Source: Deltaproteobacteria bacterium | Lineage (GTDB): Bacteria > Myxococcota_A > Polyangia > GCA-2747355 > JADLHG01 | Direction of reading: 5' to 3' | DNA: 64,000 bases | Assembly (NCBI GenBank): GCA_020848905.1 | Contig: JADLHG010000020.1 | Span: 8,230-72,229, forward strand | Shown: positions 1,227 to 52,000 of the stretch, in pieces | Numbering within the stretch: the first letter of the stretch is position 1 | Layout: each line of letters starts with the position of its first letter | The notes under the pieces: generated by a model | Told to the model about the DNA's origin: nothing | The model's database searches: none | The model's input: only the letters and a program-made list of their open reading frames with translations | Program-made: the position numbers and the translations under genes

Positions 1227-2647
1227 CGTGGCTCGCGGTGCTCACGGTGGCGCTCGTCGCGCAGGATCAGACTCCGCTCCTCGCCGCCGCCGAGGAGCGG
1301 GCCCCGCGCCAGGCGACGCTCTGGCCCGGCGACTGGCTGGAGGTGCGCGGCGCGCGGCGCGACTATTTGCAGGTCTACGACCACCGGCACGAGCGTCCGG
1401 GGTACGTGCACCGCCGCTTGGTCAGGGCCTACGAGGCGACCGAGGCTGCCGCGCCGAGGCTGCGGGCGGTGATCGAGTTCCTCAGGGAGCAAGCGGGGGG
1501 CGAGGCGCTCGGGATCGGCTACGTCGCGCTCTACCTCAAGGTAGCGCCGCGGAGCGCGCTCGACGCGGAGGTCTTCTCGGCGCTCGGCACCTTCGCCCAG
1601 CGGCTCGCGTACCGGGCGTCGGCGGAGCGCACGAAACGCGGGCAGGACTCGCTCGGCGCGCACCTCGACGTGGCGCGGAGCTACGGCGTGCGTCTCGCGA
1701 GCTTCGAGAGCGACGGTCGCACGCGCACCTGCTACGACGGCGAGGCCTTCCGGCGGGTCCTGGCCTTCAAGGCCCCGCCCGAGCTGAAGGCGCGGGCGGC
1801 GCTCGCGGTGACCGACCCCGCGTGCGTGCACCCCGAGCTCGGGCCGCGCGAACGGCGCACGGTCCTCGAATGGTCGGCCGCGCTCCTCGATAAGGTGGAC
1901 CCGCTCGCGCTGCCGGCCTACCTCGGTAACCGGCTGCGATTGCGGAGCGCGCGCGTGGCCGCGGAGCTGGCCTTCGAGCTGGCCCGCGCGGGCGATCGCG
2001 CGGCAGGAGCCAAACGGGCTGAGGCGGCGCTCGCCTCGCTCTTGCGCGTGGATCGCCGCGAGCTCGCCGAGGCGGATCTCTTCGCGTACGAGGAGACCCG
2101 GGTGCAGGTGGGCACGAGCCGCTACCTGCGCGGGGCCAGGGCGTCGCGACCGGGGCGTGGGCTCGCGCTGCGGCTCGAGCCGCGGGGTCCCGGCGAGACC
2201 TGCGTCAGGCTCTACGCGCGCGGTCGGACGAACGCGAAGGCGGCCGCTCCGCTCGTCGAACGCTGCACGCACGGGCTCGTGCACGCGGCCTCGGCGCGGG
2301 TGGCTCCGCGCGGCGAGCGGTTGGTCCTGGCCGTGCAACCGCTCGCCGGCTGGCTCGAGCTCTGGGTCTTTCAGCGGGGCGAGAAGGGCTTCCAGGTGGA
2401 CGTGGTGGTCCCCGCGACGACCGAGCCGCGCCTCGGGTACGTGGAGCTGGCGGGCTTTTCCCCCGACGGTGGGCGGCTCCTCCTGGCGCGCGAGGTGGTG
2501 GCCGGCCGGAGGTGGGAGCGGCGCTTCGAGGTGCTCGAGGTGGCCACGTTGGCGGTCAAGGAGCAGGGGGCGATGCTTCGCCGCGTGCCGACCTTCCGCC
2601 GCTGGTTCAGCCCCGAGTGGCGCGGCCAGACCCTGGCGCTCCGGTGA
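1223..2647 (+). CDS. hypothetical exported protein, translationally coupled to the SPFH gene
   Basis: ORF 1223..2647. Its ATG overlaps the SPFH stop (ATGA at 1223-1226). The N-terminus MTWLAVLTVALVAQ is signal-like. It has an SH3-like segment (ATLWPGDWLEVRGARRDYLQVYD) and a C-terminal FSPDGGRLLLA (PD40/TolB-like). No family assigned with certainty. Confidence 0.6.
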   Translation: MTWLAVLTVALVAQDQTPLLAAAEERAPRQATLWPGDWLEVRGARRDYLQVYDHRHERPGYVHRRLVRAYEATEAAAPRLRAVIEFLREQAGGEALGIGYVALYLKVAPRSALDAEVFSALGTFAQRLAYRASAERTKRGQDSLGAHLDVARSYGVRLASFESDGRTRTCYDGEAFRRVLAFKAPPELKARAALAVTDPACVHPELGPRERRTVLEWSAALLDKVDPLALPAYLGNRLRLRSARVAAELAFELARAGDRAAGAKRAEAALASLLRVDRRELAEADLFAYEETRVQVGTSRYLRGARASRPGRGLALRLEPRGPGETCVRLYARGRTNAKAAAPLVERCTHGLVHAASARVAPRGERLVLAVQPLAGWLELWVFQRGEKGFQVDVVVPATTEPRLGYVELAGFSPDGGRLLLAREVVAGRRWERRFEVLEVATLAVKEQGAMLRRVPTFRRWFSPEWRGQTLALR

Positions 2648-10144: not shown

Positions 10145-10345
10145 GCGCCGGCCGAGGCCGCCCGCGCGGGGACCCACAGACGCGCCCTCGCCCCTGCGGC
10201 ATCCGTTCCAACAAGTGATGTATCTCCCCGGCTCTCGGCCAGTCTCTGTCCGTAACCTCTTGTAAATACTCCTCTGCGGGCTGGCCCAACGATTGCTGGA
10301 CGGCTCTCGCCGCGCCAGGGCGCGACGCGAGAGGAGGAGGAGAGC

Positions 10346-14819: not shown

Positions 14820-14848
14820 GGCCAACGCCTGATGCAAGCGCAAGACCA

Positions 14849-18286: not shown

Positions 18287-18447
18287 GGCTTTCGCCTCCA
18301 TCGTGGAATGCAGGCGCGCTGAACTGCAATCGGCGTTCCACGAAGTCTTGTTGCAGTCGCAGGGACTTGGGTGCGTCGGAGGCTGGCGGCAGGCGGAGCC
18401 AGGTGCCGACACGTTCCAGCCGCGTCGGCGGGGAGGCGAGGAGGGCG

Positions 18448-28392: not shown

Positions 28393-28611
28393 TCCTAGGC
28401 AGGCCGCCCCGCCGGGTGTCTCGCCGCCGCCCCGTAGCCCGCACGACCCCCCGGCGCCCCTCGCCCGTCCTGGCCAGCGGCCCAGCCAGCTCCCGCCCTG
28501 CGGGTCCTCCCACGAGCCCCGCGAACTGCCTATCCTTTTCACGCCCGCCGGCCGTCGTCGGTTGGTCCAGATGTTGCTGTCTCTTGTTTGCACAGGACGC
28601 TGGCCCCACCC

Positions 28612-34842: not shown

Positions 34843-37665
34843 CTACGGCCCGCAGGTGAGCAGGAACGGCCTCTGCGCGCCGCCCATCGTTCCCATGCCG
34901 ACGATGTGCCCTTTCTTGTTGATGGCGAGGGCACGGACGAGGGACCAGCCCGCGCCGGCGGGGAGCAGGCCGTTGAGGTCTTCGAGCTTTCCGTCCTTCC
35001 AGCGTACGGCCCGCTTCACCGATTCTCCGACGATCACCCCCGCGTCGTTGACGCCGTGGGCAATGCTGATGTCACCGCCGGGGAGCACCGTCATGCCGCC
35101 GCCCGACCAAGAGGCTGCACGTCCCTCCCCGGAGAAGTTGCTCACGACGCCCACGACGAGCCCTGACGCGTTGATGCCGTTGGCGCTGCTGAGCCTCCAG
35201 TCTCCAGATCCCGCACCCAGATCCTGAACCCCTCCGCCGCTGAAGAGGCACGCGTGCGCGTCGGGGCCGACACCGGGCGCCGCCGGCAGATTGGCCTGTC
35301 CCACCACCTGATCCGCCTCGTTCAGCGCGTGGCCCTGGCTGTTGTCGCTGAGCGTGCCCAGGTCCGTGACGCTGCCGCCGGTCCAGAGAACGGCGTGCGA
35401 GAAGCCCGTGCTCAGCGCGGCCCGGCCGGCTACATGGCCCGCTTGGTTGATGGCGTAGGCCACGGCCACGTTTCCGCCGAGCGTCCCGAGGTCCTGCATC
35501 GCCCCGTTGTGCCATATGAACGCGCGCTGCGTTCCGCTGCTCGACGTCGACGTACCCACCACGTCCTTGGCGTCGTTGATGCCTAGGGCTCGGCTGGTCG
35601 ATCCACCGAGGGTGCCCAGGTCCCGCATCGTGCCGTTGTCCCAGAGGAAGGCGTGCTCGTTACTCCCGCTGCTCGCGTAGCACCAGCCGGCGACCTGTCC
35701 GGTGTTGTTGAGCGCCTGGGCGGTGCAATCCCCGCCGAGCGTGCCCAGGTCCTTGATCACGCACGAGGAGCCCTTGCCGAGCTCGAGCGCCAGGTTGTCG
35801 AAGGGCAGGAGCCGCGTCATGACGAAGGCCGAGAAGTCGCTCGTCTGCCCGACGTCGGTCGCGGTGAACGGGAGGGCGAAGCTCGTCTGCCCCGCCGTGG
35901 CGGTCGCGCGGCCCGCCTCGACGAAGGAGGAGGTGCCGACCTTGCGCACCAGGATGATGTCCTTCACGTTGTAAGGCCCCACCGTGGGCGGAAACGTGAC
36001 CGTCGCGGGGTCGAGCTCGACGGTGAAGGTGACCTTGTCTCCGGCGACGAAGCTGCCCCGATCGGCGGTCAGCGTGCCCTTGGGAGACTCCGCGAGCGGC
36101 CTCGACGACTGGAGCTCGAGGATCGTGATGTCCGTGATGCCGAACTGGCCGAGCATCTTGGGCAGGTCCACGCCCACGCTCCCCTTGCTCACCAGGGACA
36201 GTTTGTAGGACGACGCGTAGGCGGGGTCCGCGAGCTGGTCGCCCCACGGCGCGAAGCTGCCCTCGAGCGTCGGCCCGTAGCGCAGGGAGAACGGGGTAAG
36301 GCGCAGCCGCTTGAAGATCGGGTTGCCGAGGCCGACCTTGGCCAGACCGAACACGGCGAAGCTGGCATCTACCCGCAGGTCGTTGGTCGTGGGTTTCTTC
36401 CAGACCGGCTCGGCGCTGGCGCTCGCCGTCAGGCTGCGTACGAACTCGCAGTTGGTTCCTTTCGGACAGGCGACGCCGAGCTCCGCCTGCGCCTTGGCCT
36501 CCGCCTTGGCGCCCACGACCAGGTTCGTCAGCGCCACCTTGCCGCCGAGCTCGACGCCGACGCTGAGGGGGATCACCACGGACACCACCCAGGAGAGCGC
36601 CCCCGCGATGGGAATGCGGAGCTCGAAGAACTCCCGCGTGCACGACACGGTGCCCTGAAAGCCGAGCGCCACGGTGAGGCTGCCGTCCAAGGTCGCGCCG
36701 AGGTCTCCCTTGGCGACCAGCCGTTCGAGGCCCACGCCGGAGGTGTAGACGAAGTCGAGGCTGAGGTTGCGGTTGATGCTGACCGCGGGGGCCGTGCCGA
36801 GCGTGACCGGCCACTGGCTCACCCCCGTGGCGTCGAGCTCGCACTCGTCGAAGGGCGGCATCTTGAAGGAGAGCTTCGTGGCCTGCCGCTCGCCGGTCGC
36901 CCCGCTCGAGGCGGCGTCCGCCTTGGGCCGAGGCTTGAAGCGGATCGTGGACCCCTCGCGCGTGATCTCGTAGGCGTCCTTGAGGTCCGAGGCGATCTCG
37001 GGCTCGACGGTCGAGAGGTCGAAGACCTCCTTGATGCTCAGGTGAGGCAGGAGCTCCTTGACGGGCACGACCGCGAGCGTGACTCGCACCTGGTCGCCGT
37101 CCCGCTGCGCGGAGACGACCTTGCCGCCGACGGGCTTGGCCTCGAGACCGATCACCAGAGTGCCCGGCGGCGGCGCGTCCACGCCGGCGAGTACGACCTC
37201 GTAGGTGGCGCCGGTCACGGGTGCGGCGCTGGGGTCGATCGCCCTCGGGTCCCCGACGAGCTGGGCGTCCGTCACCGCGAGCGCGCCCGGGGGCAACGCC
37301 GTGACGGCCACCAGGAGCGGCGGGGAGGTCACGCCCTGGGCCTCGGCGACGAGCTGACTCGCGCCGTTCTGCACCTGGGCCGTGATCATTCCCTGCCCGT
37401 CGACGGCGATGCTGGCCGGTGTGGTCGAGCGCCACGAGATGGGCGGCGCGGCCACAACGCGACCTTCGGCGTCGTACGCGTTCACCGCGAGCTGTCGCTT
37501 CGCCCCCGCGGCCGTGAGGAGCAGCCCCTTAGGGACGATCTCGAGGCGCGCGACCGGACCCGCGGGTCCCGTCGAAGCGTCCTTGCAGCCGACGAGCCCG
37601 GCGACAAGCCCGAGCGAAGACAGGTTGACTACGACCCACCACTGCCACGTCCCCCGGATGCGCAT
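34843..37665 (-). CDS. large lipoprotein with Big_2-like Ig domain and C-terminal HAF-family extracellular repeats
   Basis: ORF 34843..37665. Lipobox LVAGLVGC|K. LEIVPKGLLLTAAGAKRQLAVNAYDAEG is Big_2-like. The C-terminal repeats are HAFLWDNGTMRDLGTLGG, RAFIWHNGAMQDLGTLGG and HAVLWTGGSVTDLGTL. Confidence 0.75.
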   Translation of the reverse strand: MRIRGTWQWWVVVNLSSLGLVAGLVGCKDASTGPAGPVARLEIVPKGLLLTAAGAKRQLAVNAYDAEGRVVAAPPISWRSTTPASIAVDGQGMITAQVQNGASQLVAEAQGVTSPPLLVAVTALPPGALAVTDAQLVGDPRAIDPSAAPVTGATYEVVLAGVDAPPPGTLVIGLEAKPVGGKVVSAQRDGDQVRVTLAVVPVKELLPHLSIKEVFDLSTVEPEIASDLKDAYEITREGSTIRFKPRPKADAASSGATGERQATKLSFKMPPFDECELDATGVSQWPVTLGTAPAVSINRNLSLDFVYTSGVGLERLVAKGDLGATLDGSLTVALGFQGTVSCTREFFELRIPIAGALSWVVSVVIPLSVGVELGGKVALTNLVVGAKAEAKAQAELGVACPKGTNCEFVRSLTASASAEPVWKKPTTNDLRVDASFAVFGLAKVGLGNPIFKRLRLTPFSLRYGPTLEGSFAPWGDQLADPAYASSYKLSLVSKGSVGVDLPKMLGQFGITDITILELQSSRPLAESPKGTLTADRGSFVAGDKVTFTVELDPATVTFPPTVGPYNVKDIILVRKVGTSSFVEAGRATATAGQTSFALPFTATDVGQTSDFSAFVMTRLLPFDNLALELGKGSSCVIKDLGTLGGDCTAQALNNTGQVAGWCYASSGSNEHAFLWDNGTMRDLGTLGGSTSRALGINDAKDVVGTSTSSSGTQRAFIWHNGAMQDLGTLGGNVAVAYAINQAGHVAGRAALSTGFSHAVLWTGGSVTDLGTLSDNSQGHALNEADQVVGQANLPAAPGVGPDAHACLFSGGGVQDLGAGSGDWRLSSANGINASGLVVGVVSNFSGEGRAASWSGGGMTVLPGGDISIAHGVNDAGVIVGESVKRAVRWKDGKLEDLNGLLPAGAGWSLVRALAINKKGHIVGMGTMGGAQRPFLLTCGP

Positions 37666-38310: not shown

Positions 38311-39102
38311 ATGTCCCGTCGCACATCTATCTCGTTTCTTCCCGTGCTCGCTGCAGCGCTCGCCGTGGGCTGCGGCATCCCCGAGGAGGAGCACAACAAG
38401 ACGCTCGATCAGCTCAAGAACCTGCGAGCCAACCTGGCCGCCGAGCAGAAGTCCTGCGCCGAGGCCAAGAGCGAGCTCGAGACGAAGCACAAGAAGCTGG
38501 ACGAGCAGGCGCGGAAGATGCGCGCCAAGCTCATCTCGCTCGGGCAGGACCTCACGGCCAGCGGGGTGGCGATCACGCAGAAGGAGCAGCAGATCGCCGA
38601 GCTCCTCAAGGCGCAGGAGCAGGCCAAGCAGCGCGCTGCCTTCTACGCCGGCCTCGTGGCCAAGTTCAAGCAGATGATCGACTCGGGCAAGCTCAAGGTG
38701 GAGGTGCGCTCGGGCAAGATGATCGTGAAGATGAGCGACCAGATCCTCTTCGACCCGGGCAAGGCCAAGCTGAAGAAGGAGGGCTCCGTCGCGCTGCTCG
38801 AGGTCGCGCGCATCCTGGGCACGATCCCCGATCGCGCGTTCCAGGTGGCCGGCCACACCGACAACGTGCCGATCAAGACGGCGCAGTTCGCCTCGAACTG
38901 GGAGCTCTCCACCGCGCGCGCCGCGAACGTGGTCAAGTTCATGTCCGACAACGGGCTCGACCCGAAGCGCCTCTCCGCGGCGGGCTACGCCGAGCACGAC
39001 CCGGTGGCGGGCAACGACACGCCGGCGGGGCGGCAGCTCAATCGCCGCATCGAGATCACGCTCATGCCGAACCTGGACGAGCTGCCCAAGATCGGGGAGT
39101 AG
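38311..39102 (+). CDS. OmpA/MotB-family peptidoglycan-binding lipoprotein with coiled-coil
   Basis: ORF 38311..39102. Lipobox ALAVGC|G. A Lys/Glu/Gln coiled coil is followed by an OmpA_C-type domain (ILFDPGKAKLKKEG, FQVAGHTDNVPI, NWELSTARAANVV, NRRIEITL). Confidence 0.85.
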   Translation: MSRRTSISFLPVLAAALAVGCGIPEEEHNKTLDQLKNLRANLAAEQKSCAEAKSELETKHKKLDEQARKMRAKLISLGQDLTASGVAITQKEQQIAELLKAQEQAKQRAAFYAGLVAKFKQMIDSGKLKVEVRSGKMIVKMSDQILFDPGKAKLKKEGSVALLEVARILGTIPDRAFQVAGHTDNVPIKTAQFASNWELSTARAANVVKFMSDNGLDPKRLSAAGYAEHDPVAGNDTPAGRQLNRRIEITLMPNLDELPKIGE

Positions 39103-39147: not shown

Positions 39148-39561
39148 CTAGAACCGAGAATGGGGGCGGCTGGCGACGATCCAGCCGATGCGGGCGGCGG
39201 CGATAGATGCCATGAGGAACGTGATGCCTCCGAAGAGGTACAGCTCGCCGGTAGTGCTAGCCTCGTAGGCGTGCTTCGTCGCGCTGGCGAACAACCACCC
39301 GTACGCTCCCACTCCGATCGTCTTCAGCCACCACGGCGTCTGCGCCGTCGTGCCGAGCCGAGCCGGCCGGCTCTCGGCGCGGCCGAGGGCGCCCGTCGCG
39401 AGACGTCCCACGAACTGCTGACCGCGCTGCACGAGGCCCGACACGATCGGCGTCGGCCCGCCCCGCTGTTGCCCCTTGATCGCGTACGCGGGCGGCGCGA
39501 GAAACCCACCGATGAGCAGCGCGCAAACGGCCGCGGAACCGACGGACGCCGAACGAGTCAT
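39148..39561 (-). CDS. small hydrophobic membrane/secreted protein, paralogue A
   Basis: ATG at 39561 in ORF 39148..39942. MTRSASVGSAAVCALLIGGFLAPPAYA|IKG. C-terminal hydrophobic helices. Paralogous to 41008..41388. Confidence 0.55.
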   Translation of the reverse strand: MTRSASVGSAAVCALLIGGFLAPPAYAIKGQQRGGPTPIVSGLVQRGQQFVGRLATGALGRAESRPARLGTTAQTPWWLKTIGVGAYGWLFASATKHAYEASTTGELYLFGGITFLMASIAAARIGWIVASRPHSRF

Positions 39562-39760
39562 GACCAACCTCCAGGGTCTGACGGGTGAGCTGCAAACCGG
39601 GTAACCACTGTCCCTGATGCAACGGGCGATCCAGAGCCACGAGGGGCTCGGGAGCCCGCGCTTGCGCGGTGTTGGCCCTGGTGGTGCGCCTCGAGGTGGC
39701 GGGCCGCCCCGCCGGCTGCTGGCTACCCGTCTCGTCGATCGGTCGTGCTCGCGCGCTCGA
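39148..39760 (-). repeat. duplicated module copy A (small membrane protein gene + ~190-nt conserved leader)
   Basis: Aligns by eye with 41008..41600. It includes the identical stretch GAGTCATGACCAACCTCCAGGGTCTGACGGGTG around the start codon and SD. Further blocks (TCCAGAG.CACGAGG, GCGCCTCGAGGTGG, GCTGGCTACC) are shared upstream. Confidence 0.7.
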
Positions 39761-39898
39761 GAGCGCGGGCGGCTTCCGGCGGCCATCCAGGCCACGGCCA
39801 ACATCTGATGGCATTCATGCGTTCTCACGGCCTTGCGCGGGCCGGAGGCTGGCCCCGGGCTTGCTATAGGTCCTCCGTACAGACCTCGGAGAACGATC

Positions 39899-40450
39899 AT
39901 GGTACGGACGCTCGTCCTCGGCGCCGCGTGTGCGCTCTTCATCAGCTCGTCGGCGCTCGCGGCCGAGACGAGCTCCTCGCCGCGGCGTTACACCGTGTTT
40001 TCCGTGCTGCGCGGCTTCACGCGCCTGCCGCGCCATCTCCCCGGGCCGGTGAAGGTGGCCGCGCGCTGGGGGACGGGTCTGCTGGCCTATAGCTATCTCA
40101 CCGCGCAGGGCGTCCATCCCGCCGTGGCAGGAGGCGGCTCGTATCTCGCGGGCGAGGTGGTCCATCAGCTGACGAAGAAGGCCCCGCGCTCTTCCACGGC
40201 GCATGCTGGGCACGAGCTCGCCGCGGTGGGGATCGCGACCCTCTTCACGGGGGCGCTCTCCGGCCTCATCGATGCAGTGGGGAGCCTCGGCTCGGGAGGC
40301 GATCCGATGGTCATGCTGCAGTCCAGCACGGCCTTCGTCTCCGGCCTCGTCTCGAAGTTCATCGCCAAGGCGTATATCGACTACCACCTCGGTCCGAAGG
40401 GGGCGGAGCGTCGGGCCGAGAGAGCGCGGAAGCGCCGCTTCGGCATCTGA
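39899..40450 (+). CDS. hypothetical secreted/membrane protein
   Basis: ATG at 39899 in ORF 39833..40450. Signal MVRTLVLGAACALFISSSALA|AE. Gly/Ala-rich hydrophobic segments and a basic tail (RRAERARKRRFGI). Confidence 0.5.
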   Translation: MVRTLVLGAACALFISSSALAAETSSSPRRYTVFSVLRGFTRLPRHLPGPVKVAARWGTGLLAYSYLTAQGVHPAVAGGGSYLAGEVVHQLTKKAPRSSTAHAGHELAAVGIATLFTGALSGLIDAVGSLGSGGDPMVMLQSSTAFVSGLVSKFIAKAYIDYHLGPKGAERRAERARKRRFGI

Positions 40451-40466
40451 CGGTCAGGAGGGGGCG

Positions 40467-40829
40467 CTACCGACGGCCCCCGGTCCAGAAGCTGCTCCAG
40501 GCCTGCATCGCCGCGATGGACCACTGCACGTTGGCCACGTACATGGCGGCGTAGCTCTGCGCCAGATCCCCGAGCCCGCCGAAGTGCACCGTGTTCTCGT
40601 TCACGTTCACGTTGCTCCCCACGATGACCGCACCTCGCAGGGTGCTCGGTGCGCCGAGCCGCCGGTTCTGCGGCCGCTGCCCGAAGGTGACGTGGTTGCG
40701 GTTCACGTTGAGATTCGCGCCCACGACGGTGATCCCGAGCTGGGCCTTCTTGCCTTCGTTGGCGTGCGCCACCGCCGGTCCGACGGTGAACCCAAGACCA
40801 ACGAGCAGAACGAGAAAGTGTCTTCGCAT
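40467..40829 (-). CDS. small secreted protein with internal duplicated VG-N-NVN-N-V-FG repeat
   Basis: ORF 40467..40829. Signal MRRHFLVLLVGLGFTVGPAVAHA|NE. Internal repeat ITVVGANLNVNRNHVTFG / AVIVGSNVNVNENTVHFG. Confidence 0.5.
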   Translation of the reverse strand: MRRHFLVLLVGLGFTVGPAVAHANEGKKAQLGITVVGANLNVNRNHVTFGQRPQNRRLGAPSTLRGAVIVGSNVNVNENTVHFGGLGDLAQSYAAMYVANVQWSIAAMQAWSSFWTGGRR

Positions 40830-40960
40830 GACAGAGCGTGCCTCCCGGAGGTTCCTGGCCCCCGGAGGGGCAAGGCCCGCGCCAGTACCGCGTTGCGTAA
40901 TTTCGACGACTTAGGGAGGGACGGGTCTCCGAAGGTCTACGCCTTCGACCCGTGATGCGC

Positions 40961-41003
40961 GCGATCTCGGACCGCGATCTCGGACGGACCGCGATCTCGG
41001 ACC
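40961..41003. repeat. three copies of a 13-nt unit GCGATCTCGGACC (each with GATC)
   Basis: Copies at 40961-40973, 40974-40985 and 40991-41003. They lie immediately downstream of the stop at 41008 and 130-175 nt upstream of the start at 40829 on the - strand. Confidence 0.75.
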
Positions 41004-41007
41004 GCGC

Positions 41008-41388
41008 CTAATGCCGGAGCTTCGAGGCGAGGTAGGCGAAGAGGACGCCCGACCCGAAGAGACCGGAGAAGATCATCCCGCCGTCATGGAGCACGAGCCC
41101 GTTCTTCAGGGTGCTCCCCGCGAGCCAAGCCCAAAGACCCATCCCGGCGATCTTGAGGAGCGGGTGCACCTGCGCCGTCGTGCCGAGGCGGGCCGACCTG
41201 CTCTCGGCCCCCGCGAGGGACCGCATCGCGAGGCGGTCGACCGCCTGGCGCCCGCGCTGCGCGAGGCTCCCGACCATCTGGGTGATGCCCCCCTTCGTCC
41301 CGCCCAGCGCGTAGGCGGGGGGTGCGAGGAAGCAGCCGATGAGCAGGGCGCACACGGCCACGGAACCGAGAGACGACGGACGAGTCAT
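41008..41388 (-). CDS. small hydrophobic membrane/secreted protein, paralogue B
   Basis: ORF 41008..41394 with the likely ATG at 41388. MTRPSSLGSVAVCALLIGCFLAPPAYA|LGG. Shared SRSARLGTTAQ block and hydrophobic C-terminus. Confidence 0.55.
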   Translation of the reverse strand: MTRPSSLGSVAVCALLIGCFLAPPAYALGGTKGGITQMVGSLAQRGRQAVDRLAMRSLAGAESRSARLGTTAQVHPLLKIAGMGLWAWLAGSTLKNGLVLHDGGMIFSGLFGSGVLFAYLASKLRH

Positions 41389-41600
41389 GACCAACCTCCA
41401 GGGTCTGACGGGTGGAACACAAGGTCGTTAGCGACCGCCTCCTGTGCAACTGGCATTCCAGAGACACGAGGGTCGCGGGATCTCGCGCTGGCGCGGAGTT
41501 GGCTGTTGCGGCGCGCCTCGAGGTGGCCGCCAGCCATGCTGGCAGCTGGCTACCGGCGTCGGGGATCGACCGCCGTCGGACGACGGCCGGGCCGGATCTC
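41008..41600 (-). repeat. duplicated module copy B (small membrane protein gene + conserved leader)
   Basis: See copy A. Shared coding similarity and shared upstream non-coding blocks. Confidence 0.7.
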
Positions 41601-41729
41601 TTGCGATACGCTTCTCGTAGCGGCTACCCGAGCCACCCTGCCCGATCCCCCTCGCGTGCTGCATCAAAGGCTTGGGCCTGGCGTGAGGGTTGCACCCGGC
41701 CCGCGCGAACCTCAGAAAGGACGTGAGCG

Positions 41730-42221
41730 ATGCGACGACCGTTGTCGGCGTTGGTGCTGGGCTTGAGCTTGTTCTCCGTGGCGACCGCTTACGCGAAGAC
41801 CCCCGCGCAGCAGGCGCCAGGAGGCCGGGGGGCGTGGCTCGTCCGGCCCGTCACCGCCGTGAAGCGCTTCGTCTCCAACCACGAGAGGCCGTTGCGCCGC
41901 ACGGTCGCCCTCGGTGGATTGGTGCTCACGGCGCTCGGGATCGGCGCCGCGGCGCACGAGCTGAACCCGCTCATCAGCGCGCCGATGGCCGTAGGGGGCG
42001 CTAACCTCGCCCTTCTCGCTACGAACAGCGACCTCGGGACCAAGGCGGGACGCACGGCCATCGGGCTCGGTGTGGCCTCCACGCTGCTCGCGACGGCCAC
42101 GGCGGGCCTCGTTCAGCTCCACCAGTGGTATACCGACGGTCTTGCTCTTCTCACGGGCATCTTCTCCTTCGGCACCTTCATGGGTAACTTCCACGCTCCC
42201 GGCACGATGATGCGGCTCTAG
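41730..42221 (+). CDS. hypothetical secreted/membrane protein
   Basis: ORF 41730..42221. Signal MRRPLSALVLGLSLFSVATAYA|KT. Several Gly/Ala/Leu-rich hydrophobic segments. Same position and orientation as 39899..40450 relative to the duplicated module. Confidence 0.5.
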   Translation: MRRPLSALVLGLSLFSVATAYAKTPAQQAPGGRGAWLVRPVTAVKRFVSNHERPLRRTVALGGLVLTALGIGAAAHELNPLISAPMAVGGANLALLATNSDLGTKAGRTAIGLGVASTLLATATAGLVQLHQWYTDGLALLTGIFSFGTFMGNFHAPGTMMRL

Positions 42222-45108: not shown

Positions 45109-46131
45109 GTGATGGACGCGCCAGCCAACGACGTTTGGGTCTTTGTCGAGCAACGGGGCGGTAGGCCCCACGCCGTGAGCTTCGAGCTCCTCTCCAAGGG
45201 GCGCAAGCTCGCCGAGCAGCTCGGGGGCACGCTCAAGGCCGTGCTCCTCGGACACGGGGTGCGCGAGGCCGCGCGCGAGCTCTTTCGCTTTGGCGCGCGC
45301 GAGGTGCTGCTGGTGGATCACGCGGCCCTCGCGGACTACCGCACGATGCCCTACGCGCGCATCGTGGGGGAGCTGGTCGGCGCTCGTCAGCCGCGGATTG
45401 TGCTCTTCGGCGCGACGGTGGTGGGTCGGGACCTGGCGCCGCGGGTGGCTTCGCAGACCCGCAGCGGGCTCACGGCGGACTGCACGGACCTGCAGATCGG
45501 CGACGTGAGCTATCTGCGCAAGGAGTACAAGAACCTGCTCCTGCAGATCCGGCCGGCCCTCGGCGGGAACATCATCGCCACGATCATCACGCCTGACGTG
45601 CCGGTGCAGATGGCCACCGTGCGCGAGGGGGTGATGGAGGCCTCGGCGGCCGAGGGCGCGGTCGAGGGGCGCGTGGTGGAGCTCCCCTACGTGGCCGCTC
45701 CCGCCGACGAGCTGGTGCAGGTCGTGGAGCGGCACCAGGAGGAGAGCCCGTCGAACCTGAAGCACGCGCCGATCGTGGTGGCCGGCGGCTACGGCATGGG
45801 CACGCGCGAGAACTTCGGCCTGCTGCACAAGCTGGCCGAGCTCCTCGGCGGGGACGTGGCCGCCACGCGCGCGGCGGTGGACGCGGGGTTCGCCACCTCG
45901 GACCGTCAGGTGGGGCAGACGGGGCTGACCGTGCGGCCGAAGCTCTACATCGCGTGCGGCATCTCGGGGGCGATCCAGCACCGAGCCGGGATGGAGAAGT
46001 CGGGGCGCATCGTGGCCATCAACACCGACCCTGCGGCGCCGATCTTCGACATCTGCCACCACGCCATCGTGGGCGACGTGGCGACGGTCATCCACACCTT
46101 CATCGAGGCCTATCGCGAGCGCCTCCGCTAG
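45109..46131 (+). CDS. etfA: electron transfer flavoprotein alpha subunit
   Basis: ORF 45109..46131. [25 protein letters not shown] and [19 protein letters not shown] are EtfA FAD-domain motifs. Confidence 0.85.
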
Positions 46132-48874: not shown

Positions 48875-49357
48875 TCAGCGGCTCCAGCCGTGGCGCTCAG
48901 CGAGCTGTTCGATGACCTCGGCCTGGTGACGCGCCTCGGGGTGCTCGTTGTGCATCATCGGGTCGGCGCGGCGGCCGAGAAACTGCATGATCAGGCCCGC
49001 GGCCCAGCGGCCGATCCCCGGCGCGTGGTCTCGACGCCCGTACCCCTCGACGAGCAGCCCTTCCTCGTCTTGCGAGACCTGCACCTCCTCGTTGCCGCGC
49101 CGCCAGCGCACGTTGAAGCCGCTGGTGGAGAGGGTCGCCATCACGAGGGCGGCCCCAGTCAGGGTCAGGATGCGCGGGGCCCACCGCCTGAAGGCGCCCG
49201 AGCTCTCGCCACCTGGGGCGCGTCGGGTGGTCGTGTCGCGACCCGGCCAGCCGCCGGAGCGCGCGTGCGCTGAGCTCGCCAGCGCGAGCCCGAGCAGGAG
49301 GGCGAGGGCCGCGTGGCGTGGACGAGCGAACGAGAGAGCGCGACGGCGATGGGACAT
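48875..49357 (-). CDS. hypothetical secreted/membrane protein
   Basis: ATG at 49357 in ORF 48875..49489. Signal-like MSHRRRALSFARPRHAALALLLGLALASSAHA|R, then a second hydrophobic segment. No family recognised. Tentative. Confidence 0.4.
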   Translation of the reverse strand: MSHRRRALSFARPRHAALALLLGLALASSAHARSGGWPGRDTTTRRAPGGESSGAFRRWAPRILTLTGAALVMATLSTSGFNVRWRRGNEEVQVSQDEEGLLVEGYGRRDHAPGIGRWAAGLIMQFLGRRADPMMHNEHPEARHQAEVIEQLAERHGWSR

Positions 49358-49651
49358 CCATTCCTCCCTGGGTGACTCCAGGCAGGAACTACGCAAGGTC
49401 CGCGCCACGCACCGATTGCGGCCGGTCGTGGGCAGGTCGGAGTCCTCGGAGGACGAACGGCGTGGTGGCCGCGGGAGGTCGAGCGGCACGAGCGCGGCTA
49501 GTTGCGTGAAAGGCTTCGACCGGTGGTGCAGCGGTGGGCGTGCTTCGTCGGGGACGGCGGCTCGGCCGCGTGCCCCTGCGGCAGCGGCGGTTTCAGCCAG
49601 GCTAGGAGGGGAGAAGAAGGGGCCGGGTCGCCTGTCGGGTGGAGCCCCGGG

Positions 49652-50710
49652 CTACTCGCCCGCCATGAGCAGGTCCCAGAACTTCTCCACCGAGCGGAAG
49701 ATCTTGCCGTGGACCGCGACGCGCGCGGGGAGGGCGTGCCGGACCGGCGTCTCGGGGACGATCACGCTGCGCGCGGCGGGCTTGGGCACGACCTTGCCGT
49801 CCAGCACCACGCGGTCCCGGGCCGCCAGGTCCTCGAGCGACCGGTCGCCGAGGTTGGAGACGACGCCGTTCACGATCGTCTCGCCGAAGCGCGTCTTGCC
49901 GCTGCGCTGCGAGGGGAAGCCGGCCCGGCCGAGGATCTTGCGCAGCGCCTGGGCCACGGGGTCCTTGGCGCCCGTCGCGGTCTGCGAGTAGACGTACGAG
50001 TAGGTCCCCTTGTTGCGTTCGTCCTCGTGGGAGTCGAGCCAAAGCACCGGCTGGTACGCCGTGGACATCTTCGCGATCCAGGTGGTCACGTCGCGCGAGA
50101 GCGGGCTGATGGCCTTCGCGCGGATGGTCTTCGTCGGGTCCTGTCCCGCCTCCGCCAGGCCGAGGACCAGGTGGTCCACGTCCGAGACGCTCTTGCCCTT
50201 GCGCCAGTTGCGCCGGATGTTCTGGTAGCGCCAGTTCTTGCGGTAGCCGGCGGGGTTCAGAAGAGGCATGACCACCATCGGGATGCCGCGCTCCTTGGCG
50301 ATCTTCGCCAGCCGGTCCACGTTCTTCTTCTGCGCCAGCGCGTTCGGCCCGGCGGGCTCCTCGCCGTGGACGCCGGACACGATCCAGATCGCCTTGCCCT
50401 GCTGGGGCGTGCGGTAGGCCACCACGGGCAGGCGCACGCGCTTGCCGTCGACGGTGGTACGCGCCACGTAGACCACCTCACGAATCCAGCCGTGCTCCTG
50501 GGCCAGGCGATCGTAGGCGGCGTAGAGGTCGTTGAGCGAGGCGCGGCCGTCGCGCGAGTAGGTCTTCACCGGCGTGCGGGGGCCGATCTTGCCGACCGCG
50601 CGCGACCCCTCGAGGGCCGAAGCCGAGGAGGCGCCGCAGAGCACGCACGTGGCGACGAGAGCGGCGAGGGCCTGGAGACGTCCCGTGGCGTGGGTCGTCG
50701 AGGAGTTCAT
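49652..50710 (-). CDS. secreted M14 / AstE-AspA-type zinc carboxypeptidase-like protein, tandem paralogue A
   Basis: ATG at 50710 in the frame of ORF 49652..51883. Signal LQALAALVATCVLCGASSASA. IWIVSGVHGEEPAG (H-x-x-E zinc motif) and WLDSHEDE (third His). The start overlaps the stop of paralogue B (ATGA). Confidence 0.65.
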   Translation of the reverse strand: MNSSTTHATGRLQALAALVATCVLCGASSASALEGSRAVGKIGPRTPVKTYSRDGRASLNDLYAAYDRLAQEHGWIREVVYVARTTVDGKRVRLPVVAYRTPQQGKAIWIVSGVHGEEPAGPNALAQKKNVDRLAKIAKERGIPMVVMPLLNPAGYRKNWRYQNIRRNWRKGKSVSDVDHLVLGLAEAGQDPTKTIRAKAISPLSRDVTTWIAKMSTAYQPVLWLDSHEDERNKGTYSYVYSQTATGAKDPVAQALRKILGRAGFPSQRSGKTRFGETIVNGVVSNLGDRSLEDLAARDRVVLDGKVVPKPAARSVIVPETPVRHALPARVAVHGKIFRSVEKFWDLLMAGE

Positions 50711-51858
50711 GAGGTCTTCCCCTTGCGCGCCGGCTTGCGTGGCGCGGGTCGGTTCAGGAGGTCCCAGATCTTCTCCACCGAGAAGAGGATGCGCGTGTGG
50801 GTCTCGATCGGATTCTTGCCACCCGGGCGCCCCTGCAGCGCGAGATCGGGGATGACCACGCTCTTGGCGCCGCGCTTTCGCACCACCTTGCCGTCGAGGA
50901 TGACCCGCGTGGCGGCCATCAGATCGTTGATCGACCCGTCGTTGACGGTGGGCACGATGCCCCGGACGATCTTCTCGCCGAAGCGCGTGACGCCGGTGAC
51001 GGTGGGGAGGCCGTTCGCGGCGAGCGCGGGGACGTTGCGTCCGTCCACCGTGGGGAAGCCGCTCTGGCGCACCAGGGTGCGGAGCATCTTGGCCACGGGG
51101 TCGTTGGCCCCGGCCTTGGTCTGCGAGTAGAGGTACGAGGTGCCCGGGGCGAGCAGGTCGTCCTGATGGAGATCGAGATGGTCGAAGGTCGGGTACCGGG
51201 CCGACATGCGGGCGATCCAGGTGGTGATCGCGTGTGCGCCGGCGCTGCTCGGCTTGGCCGCCCGCGGCCGCATGGGGTCCTGACCCTCCTTCGGCAGGCC
51301 GGCCAGCACGCCCCACGCATCGGAGACGCTCTGGCTCTTGTCCTCGTTGCGCGGCGTGTTCGGGTGCCGCCAGTTCTTGCGGTAGCCGGCGGGGTTGATG
51401 AGCGGCATGAGAACCATCGGGATGTGGCGGTCCTTCGCGACCTGCGCCAGCTTCTCCAGCGTCGTAGCCTGGGCCAGCGCGTTCGGCCCCGAGGGCTCTT
51501 CGCCGTGGATGCCCGCGGTGATCCACATGGCCTTGCCGGTCCACGGGGTACGGTAGGTCACGACGGGGAGGCGATAGCGCTTGCCGTCGACGGTGACGCC
51601 CTGCCGGTAGATCACCTCGCGGATCCAGCCGTGGTCCCGGGCCATCTTGTCGTAGGCGGCGTAGAGGTCGTTCAGAGGGGCGCGTCCATCCGCGGAGTAG
51701 GTCGGCACGGGACTGCGCGGGCCGATGCTGCGGACGCGCTGCGGGCTCACGAGCTGACGGGGCGAGCCCTTCGTCGCCTGCGCGGGGCCGGCACAGAGCA
51801 GAATGGACGCGACCAGCAGGCCGGCTACGGCCTGGGGGGACTGCCTGCAGGCTTTCAT
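50707..51858 (-). CDS. secreted M14 / AstE-AspA-type zinc carboxypeptidase-like protein, tandem paralogue B
   Basis: ORF 50707..51876 with the likely ATG at 51858. MKACRQSPQAVAGLLVASILLCAGPAQA|T. MWITAGIHGEEPSG and HLDLHQDD. Collinear similarity to paralogue A throughout. Confidence 0.65.
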   Translation of the reverse strand: MKACRQSPQAVAGLLVASILLCAGPAQATKGSPRQLVSPQRVRSIGPRSPVPTYSADGRAPLNDLYAAYDKMARDHGWIREVIYRQGVTVDGKRYRLPVVTYRTPWTGKAMWITAGIHGEEPSGPNALAQATTLEKLAQVAKDRHIPMVLMPLINPAGYRKNWRHPNTPRNEDKSQSVSDAWGVLAGLPKEGQDPMRPRAAKPSSAGAHAITTWIARMSARYPTFDHLDLHQDDLLAPGTSYLYSQTKAGANDPVAKMLRTLVRQSGFPTVDGRNVPALAANGLPTVTGVTRFGEKIVRGIVPTVNDGSINDLMAATRVILDGKVVRKRGAKSVVIPDLALQGRPGGKNPIETHTRILFSVEKIWDLLNRPAPRKPARKGKTS

Positions 51859-52000
51859 GCCCACGGGCGTTTGCACGGCACATGCCAGCCGGGTGCGTGG
51901 AATCGGCGTGGAATTGGCGTGGAATTACAGCGGGGAGCGCCAGCGGGGGGTGACAGTTGGCACCACCTGCCGGCCACTCGGCGGTCCAGGCCTCGCGCCC

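Follow-up and report, generated by a model that had tools for sequence, protein, structure and literature searches.

In contig JADLHG010000020.1 of a Deltaproteobacteria bacterium, two similar genes for small proteins, here called paralogs A and B, lie close to each other on the minus strand, and each is preceded by about 190 nucleotides (nt) of DNA which is also shared between the copies. This locus raises the question of what the shared upstream DNA does: it could be the structured leader of a messenger RNA (mRNA), a promoter or operator region, a small gene which was overlooked, or flanking DNA carried along in the duplication. The region was analysed within a window of 64 kb, the whole stretch of DNA considered here, which has a G+C content of 71%. 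The conserved 'leader' is probably a transcriptional and translational control region of the sigma-54 type, which belongs to a small orphan gene family and was duplicated together with the gene.

Conserved blocks upstream of the paralogs

Paralog A (39148-39561, minus strand; NCBI locus tag IT371_09665) codes for a protein of 137 amino acids (aa), with a G+C content at third codon positions (GC3) of 0.86-0.90 in frame, and paralog B (41008-41388, minus strand; 126 aa) was recognized by its GC3 and its similarity to A. In the proposed frames of the two, third-position G+C ranges from 0.86 to 1.00, and the proteins share 53% identity (E=4e-33). A reading made from the sequence alone had described this locus as a duplicated divergent gene pair. 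The minus-strand genes are indeed paralogous; the products of the plus-strand genes at 39899-40450 and 41730-42221, however, show no similarity detectable by BLASTP (E=14). The intergenic halves adjoining these two genes are unrelated to each other, and a gene for a 120-aa protein between A and B (40467-40829, minus strand) is present in a single copy. Since neither the plus-strand genes with their intergenic halves nor the 120-aa gene was duplicated, the duplicated unit is a single gene together with the 190 nt or so in front of it rather than a divergent pair. A repeat finder reported it as a gap-free repeat of 282 nt (39460-39741 and 41287-41568; 76% identity) at an offset of 1827 nt, accompanied by a second repeated segment, which is coding, at an offset of 1830 nt.

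Upstream of the start codon, the two copies align without insertions or deletions and are 74% identical over 39562-39751. Beyond about 39751, identity drops to 29-37%, which is the level of unrelated G+C-rich DNA. The conserved part of copy B ends near 41578-41587 and not at 41600. The short sequence blocks listed in the sequence-only reading recur in the same order upstream of A and B, and the non-coding conservation is real, but it is not uniform. In copy A, on the minus strand, a start block (39555-39587) is 100% identical to its counterpart; it is followed upstream by a decayed stretch of 31 nt (39588-39618) with 42% identity, the random level, then by a TGG-N8-TTGC element (39619-39633; 80%, the differences being confined to the 8-nt spacer), a central block (39634-39717; 77%) and a distal block (39718-39751; 71%). 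The central and distal blocks of copy B were located at 41461-41544 and 41545-41578 on the same strand, so that between A and B about 118 nt of conserved DNA lie upstream of the TGG-N8-TTGC element. The central block of A contains the palindromes CCTCGAGG and CGCGC-NN-GCGCG. The distal block of B reads GACGGCGGT-N8-GACGCCGGT followed by AGCCAG, and includes two 9-mers 17 nt apart.

A third paralog was identified at a locus on another contig of the same genome (L001), with a protein 36-41% identical to those of A and B. Its upstream region can be aligned with theirs in three places only, and the DNA between these places is unrelated. The first is the start block, of which 23 nt are kept (TGACCCTGGAGGTTGGTCATGAC). 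The second is the promoter element TGGAACGGCAGTTGCA (2310-2325), which has one mismatch from TGGCACG-N4-TTGCW. The third is the distal block, GACGGCGGTCGA-N5-GACGCCGGT-N-GCCAG; 27 of its 34 positions agree with copy B, and two 9-mers are again found 17 nt apart. The copy in A (...CGATCGACGAGACGGGTAGCCAGC) is more degenerate than those in B and the third paralog. The central block is conserved between A and B and is not kept here. The distance from the distal block to the TGG is 85, 85 and 86 nt in A, B and the third paralog, and the distance from the C of the TTGC to the ATG is 58, 58 and 59 nt. Discrete blocks which are held at fixed spacing, with free sequence between them, look like a promoter with an upstream activator site and not like a folded RNA.

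This pattern also bears on the idea that the similarity is undecayed neutral DNA left from the duplication, which flanks the gene and has no function of its own. There are only two close copies, and the raw identity of the upstream blocks (75%) does not differ significantly from that of third codon positions (64%; Fisher p=0.10), both of which leave room for such an origin. After correction for composition, however, third codon positions have diverged twice as far (0.56) as the central block (0.28). Neutral decay is further contradicted by the 31-nt inner stretch and the flank past 39751, which have already become random next to blocks of 77-100% identity, and by the much more distant third paralog, in which the promoter, the distal block and the start block are still spaced as in A and B. 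Neutral flanking DNA is therefore regarded as an improbable explanation.

The possibility that the conservation reflects an unannotated small protein was raised by open frames in both copies, for example on the plus strand at 39617-39808 and 41444-41620, which would give similar peptides (MQRAIQSHEG... and MQLAFQRHEG...). Such a likeness follows from gap-free similarity of the DNA. In all six frames, the substitutions between A and B fall about equally on the three codon positions (14-17 each; 14/14/17), and in every frame 5-6 synonymous codon changes stand against 25-27 non-synonymous ones. GC3 periodicity supports all five small open reading frames of the cluster as coding and reveals no such frame in the leader. 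A gene hidden in the leader was accordingly given a practically negligible chance.

Probable sigma-54-type promoters and a candidate upstream activator site

The consensus of sigma-54 promoters is TGGCACG-N4-TTGC(T/A) (PMC9765219). The elements of paralog A (39619-39633, minus strand; TGGATCGCCCGTTGC(A), also written TGGATCGCCCGTTGCA), paralog B (41446-41460, minus strand; TGGAATGCCAGTTGC(A), also written TGGAATGCCAGTTGCA) and the third paralog all have GG at -24 and GC at -12 (GG-N10-GC), which is exactly the consensus spacing. In the window, TGG-N8-TTGC occurs at 17 sites compared to 4.1 expected (standard deviation 2.0), a number reached in none of 100 shuffles, and TGG-N8-TTGCW at 10 sites compared to 1.4 expected. 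When the spacer was varied from 4 to 13 nt, a sharp peak was obtained at 8 nt, the other lengths giving 1-9 sites. Ten of the 17 sites are located 15-58 nt upstream of start codons and point in the same direction as the gene; the genes concerned are supported by GC3, and their products have a signal peptide at the N-terminus. The entire small-gene cluster of five genes is included, with sites at 39633(-), 39850(+), 40884(-), 41460(-) and 41679(+). Besides A and B, these are the 183-aa gene (39850-39864, plus strand; TGGCCCCGGGCTTGC(T), 35 nt before the ATG), the 120-aa gene (40870-40884, minus strand; TGGCGCGGGCCTTGC, 41 nt) and the 163-aa gene (41679-41693, plus strand; TGGCGTGAGGGTTGC(A), 37 nt). 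A near-consensus site, TGGCAAGCGACTTGC, is likewise present at the gene which diverges from the third paralog. The distribution of these motifs suggests that promoters of the sigma-54 type are widely used for exported proteins in this organism.

The five further sites lie at 10282-10296(+), 14834-14848(-), 18326-18340(-), 28563-28577(+) and 49393-49407(-), 15-50 nt upstream of signal-peptide genes of 443, 498, 260, 557 and 160 aa. At 14834-14848(-) in the window, and likewise at 2113-2145(-) of the third paralog's locus, the first in-frame ATG giving a good signal peptide is found only 15-16 nt past the -12 C, which implies either a nearly leaderless mRNA or another start codon in these two cases. 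A reading of the conserved motifs as an ECF-type sigma factor promoter (GGAAC...CGTC) was dropped; it left the conserved TTGCA unexplained and fitted only some of the copies.

What was read directly from the DNA is the motifs, together with how enriched they are, where they are placed and the fixed spacing at which they are conserved; a shared operator or promoter, which had been named as one option for the leader, is what the -24/-12 element and the upstream block at fixed spacing in three paralogs support. From these we infer how sigma-54 and an activator would act here, where transcription would begin and how an enhancer might be shared. The order in the sense of the gene would be distal block, a spacer of about 85 nt, the TGG-N8-TTGCA promoter, a 5' untranslated region (5'UTR) of about 46 nt, and the start block. 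The proposed mechanism is the standard one, in which RNA polymerase with sigma-54 would be held at the -24/-12 element as a closed complex. Upstream activator sequences are typically found about 80-150 bp upstream, and the distal block is a candidate site at which a bacterial enhancer-binding protein could bind. An activator bound at this block would loop the DNA and spend ATP to open the promoter, possibly acting also at the A/B-specific central sites CCTCGAGG and CGCGC-NN-GCGCG. From the usual distance past the -12 GC (about 12 nt), transcription is predicted to start near 39607 in A and 41434 in B, so that the decayed stretch would hold the start site and the first part of the 5'UTR. Translation would then be efficient, as this 5'UTR is predicted to be unstructured and its strong Shine-Dalgarno sequence, GGAGGT, is separated from the ATG by 6 nt.

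Each of the two intergenic regions contains two divergent sigma-54-type promoters with the distal block between them, 85 nt from that of the minus-strand gene and about 98-100 nt from that of the plus-strand gene in both copies. Because of this position, roughly midway between the promoters, the distal block could serve both genes, and the cluster, with its five small proteins which are secreted or located in the membrane, would form one co-regulated sigma-54 group. Since sigma-54 regulons typically concern the cell exterior (PMC3162934), a group of co-regulated exported proteins fits this association.

The presence of the promoter within the conserved region is also one of the arguments against the structured 5' leader RNA which had been proposed first. 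According to that proposal, the whole 190 nt would be transcribed as a cis-regulatory RNA, similar to a riboswitch or an attenuator, which controls the small gene. Such an RNA would account for the absence of insertions and deletions between A and B, and for upstream conservation comparable to or above that of synonymous sites. In addition, a short inverted repeat rich in G+C closely follows the GGTnGCCAG block in each paralog; these repeats differ in sequence, however, and are out of register between the paralogs. The conserved TGG-N8-TTGCA would fall inside the supposed RNA, and a sigma-70 scan found no sigma-70-like promoter upstream. The third paralog keeps discrete blocks only, as described above.

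Tests of folding agree with this. A search of the whole window against Rfam at gathering thresholds was negative, and for the region itself only noise was obtained (E of at least 0.47). The upstream 138 nt yielded fold z-scores of 0.17 and -1.42, with minimum-energy structures that differ between A and B. Compared to dinucleotide shuffles, the predicted 5'UTRs show no gain in stability or even a loss (z = +2.68, +0.14 and +1.78), which fits an open ribosome-binding site. RNAalifold on the paralog alignment returned a covariation term of +2.5, which is unfavourable, and many of the pairs were broken, although with three independent sequences the fold and covariation tests have low power. Cis-regulatory leaders and riboswitches of the kind collected in Rfam share with this region a conserved non-coding stretch directly upstream of the gene, which is carried along with gene duplicates. 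Here, in contrast, nothing in Rfam was matched, neither covariation nor a stable or common fold was seen, and most of the conserved part precedes the predicted transcription start. A leader RNA is judged to be very improbable. The main value of the analysis is a correction: the apparent regulatory RNA, which would have been new, is most plausibly a sigma-54 promoter of the standard kind with its enhancer and ribosome-binding site.

Several points weigh against the control-region reading, in addition to the comparison of raw identities with third codon positions. The bases following the -24 GG are TGGATC and TGGAAT in A and B, compared to TGGCAC in the consensus. For the distal block no known activator site was matched, and copy A is a degenerate version which shares 22 of 33 positions with B. 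Neither a sigma-54 gene nor an activator gene with the GAFTGA motif was found within the 64-kb window, so that the presence of the sigma-54 machinery in the genome is suggested by the enrichment of the motif only. The comparative evidence comes entirely from three paralogs of one species. The lineage also appears to be poorly sampled and poorly placed, because the nearest relatives of the ETF-alpha encoded by a flanking gene (45115-46128, plus strand) are only about 72% identical and belong to mixed phyla.

Among known systems, the closest likeness is to the Nla28-regulated promoters of Myxococcus xanthus, where tandem activator half-sites lie upstream of sigma-54 promoters (PMC9765219). Common to both are a -24 GG and a -12 GC at canonical spacing, repeated short GC-rich sites roughly 85-120 nt upstream, and targets which are exported or envelope proteins. 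The upstream repeats differ: here they read GACGSCGGT and are 17 nt apart, whereas the Nla28 half-site is CT(C/G)CG(C/G)AG. Further differences are that no activator gene is adjacent here, that the -24 element of A and B departs from the consensus after the GG, and that the present region is known from its sequence alone. The GACGSCGGT repeats, as a candidate activator site, could be matched to an enhancer-binding protein from the whole genome.

Two outward-facing -24/-12 promoters, here about 216 nt apart and with conserved DNA between them, are also a feature of the nifJ-nifH region of Klebsiella, an example of divergent sigma-54 promoters which share one intergenic region. Here, in contrast, only the half belonging to the minus-strand gene is conserved between copies, and one block serving both genes would be a proposal. 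The present case adds one more example to a familiar class of control regions, found here before the genes of an orphan paralog family. It comes from a GC-rich lineage which has been sampled poorly and in which, as the window indicates, promoters of the sigma-54 type precede many small exported proteins.

The invariant start block

The identity of 33 nt spanning start codon and Shine-Dalgarno sequence, which the sequence-only reading had pointed out, is exact: the block at 39555-39587 in copy A recurs at 41382-41414 in copy B (minus strand), and none of 100 shuffles gave such a match. It comprises the Shine-Dalgarno sequence GGAGGT, a 6-nt spacer, the ATG and the first codons. With the third paralog 23 nt are identical, while the proteins are only 36-53% identical. 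An inverted repeat, TGACC-N9-GGTCA, frames the Shine-Dalgarno sequence, and a palindrome, GTCATGAC, lies over the ATG; the block is predicted to be unstructured.

A strong ribosome-binding site accounts for part of this invariance, but not for every position, and gene conversion is a possible cause of the identical sequence, which counts against the control-region reading. The start block might instead be a regulatory site of its own, such as an operator, or a site recognized by a small RNA or an RNA-binding protein, by which the three paralogs are co-regulated. This would add to the sigma-54 model and not replace it. The block is 100% identical in three paralogs of such low protein identity, next to a 5'UTR of random similarity, and the arms of the inverted repeat flank a Shine-Dalgarno sequence containing GGA. 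However, GACC-N9-GGTC is not enriched in the window (3 found compared to 2.75 expected), the hairpin is weak and mismatched in A and B with unstable predicted folds, and a complement of the start block occurs nowhere else in the window. A ribosome-binding site together with gene conversion could also cover part of the invariance. A regulatory role of the start block is therefore possible but doubtful. The more specific proposal, that the block with TGACC-N9-GGTCA is a dedicated post-transcriptional or operator site through which one factor co-controls the orphan family on top of sigma-54 control, is considered unlikely.

The orphan family, its cluster and flanking genes

An exhaustive profile search of 1.84 billion representative proteins returned three clusters only, and the same three were obtained when 5.8 billion proteins were searched with a profile. 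Paralog A and the entry P0003 share the locus-tag prefix IT371, which designates one metagenome-assembled genome named 'Deltaproteobacteria bacterium'. A word-indexed protein search gave the query itself as the sole match, and no homologue was found in GTDB genomes by a peptide pattern or by a 20-mer. The sole match to this 20-mer in JGI metagenomes (L005) was rejected as a chance hit; it lies on the other strand inside an acetyltransferase-like gene. Judged by these searches, this is an orphan family, whose three members all belong to a single metagenome-assembled genome. The exact protein A is present in NCBI, labelled as a hypothetical protein, and A and the third paralog have NCBI locus tags, unlike B. 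The exact protein B was not returned from the protein collection, and only a variant differing in 2 residues, which derives from ENA/Logan assemblies, was found; paralog B may be unannotated in the NCBI record.

Two loci (L003 and L004) were identified as strain variants of the window, with 99.0-99.6% identity. In the comparison with L003 (99.6% identical), 30 differences were counted, of which 23 are concentrated in the small-gene cluster of 2.9 kb (39346-42221), corresponding to 0.8% compared to 0.14% in the other 5.2 kb. Nine of the differences are located in paralog B, with 6 synonymous differences compared to 3 nucleotide differences which give 2 amino-acid changes, and none in the promoter cores or the start block. 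Gene B is thus under purifying selection between strains, and the small genes are therefore regarded as real.

The five proteins of the cluster are small and basic, with net charges of +8 to +13 and signal peptides, and most have C-terminal hydrophobic segments. By hydropathy, protein A has a Sec-type signal peptide ending in AYA and a hydrophobic C-terminal segment, and is basic. The plus-strand gene at 39899-40450 codes for 183 aa with a signal peptide and a hydrophobic Gly/Ala-rich segment, and that at 41730-42221 for 163 aa with a signal peptide and several hydrophobic segments. The gene for the 120-aa signal-peptide protein was taken from the list of open reading frames and has a GC3 of 0.88-0.96. 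An AlphaFold model of protein A is all-helical and of low confidence, with a predicted local distance difference test (pLDDT) score of 46. The speculation that the cluster is a toxin/immunity or bacteriocin-like cassette found no backing: none of the five cluster proteins, nor the third paralog, was matched in Pfam, NCBIfam or PADLOC, and the N-termini resemble ordinary Sec signal peptides in their hydropathy.

Two repeated sequences were observed at the 120-aa gene. Its protein, which has no family match, contains an internal repeat (VVGANLNVNRNHVTFG / IVGSNVNVNENTVHFG). Three direct repeats of CGCGATCTCGGACCG, spaced by 13 and 17 nt, lie at 40960-41006. They directly follow the stop codon of paralog B, precede the sigma-54-type promoter of the 120-aa gene by 76-122 nt, and may form an additional activator-binding array of another kind.

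Among the flanking genes, that at 34843-37665(-) codes for a HAF-repeat protein of 940 aa and that at 38311-39102(+) for an OmpA/MotB-like peptidoglycan-binding lipoprotein. A likeness of the C-terminus of a neighbouring protease to a MYXO-CTERM sorting signal was not confirmed by NCBIfam, and the lineage is not assigned to Myxococcota here. At 49652-51883(-), two adjacent genes of about 390 aa code for similar signal-peptide proteins (...LNDLYAAYD.(L/M)A..HGWIREV...GEEP.GPNALAQ...) and look like a tandem duplication. A small protein encoded at 48875-49354 has a C-terminus with an ...ERHGW motif related to this pair.

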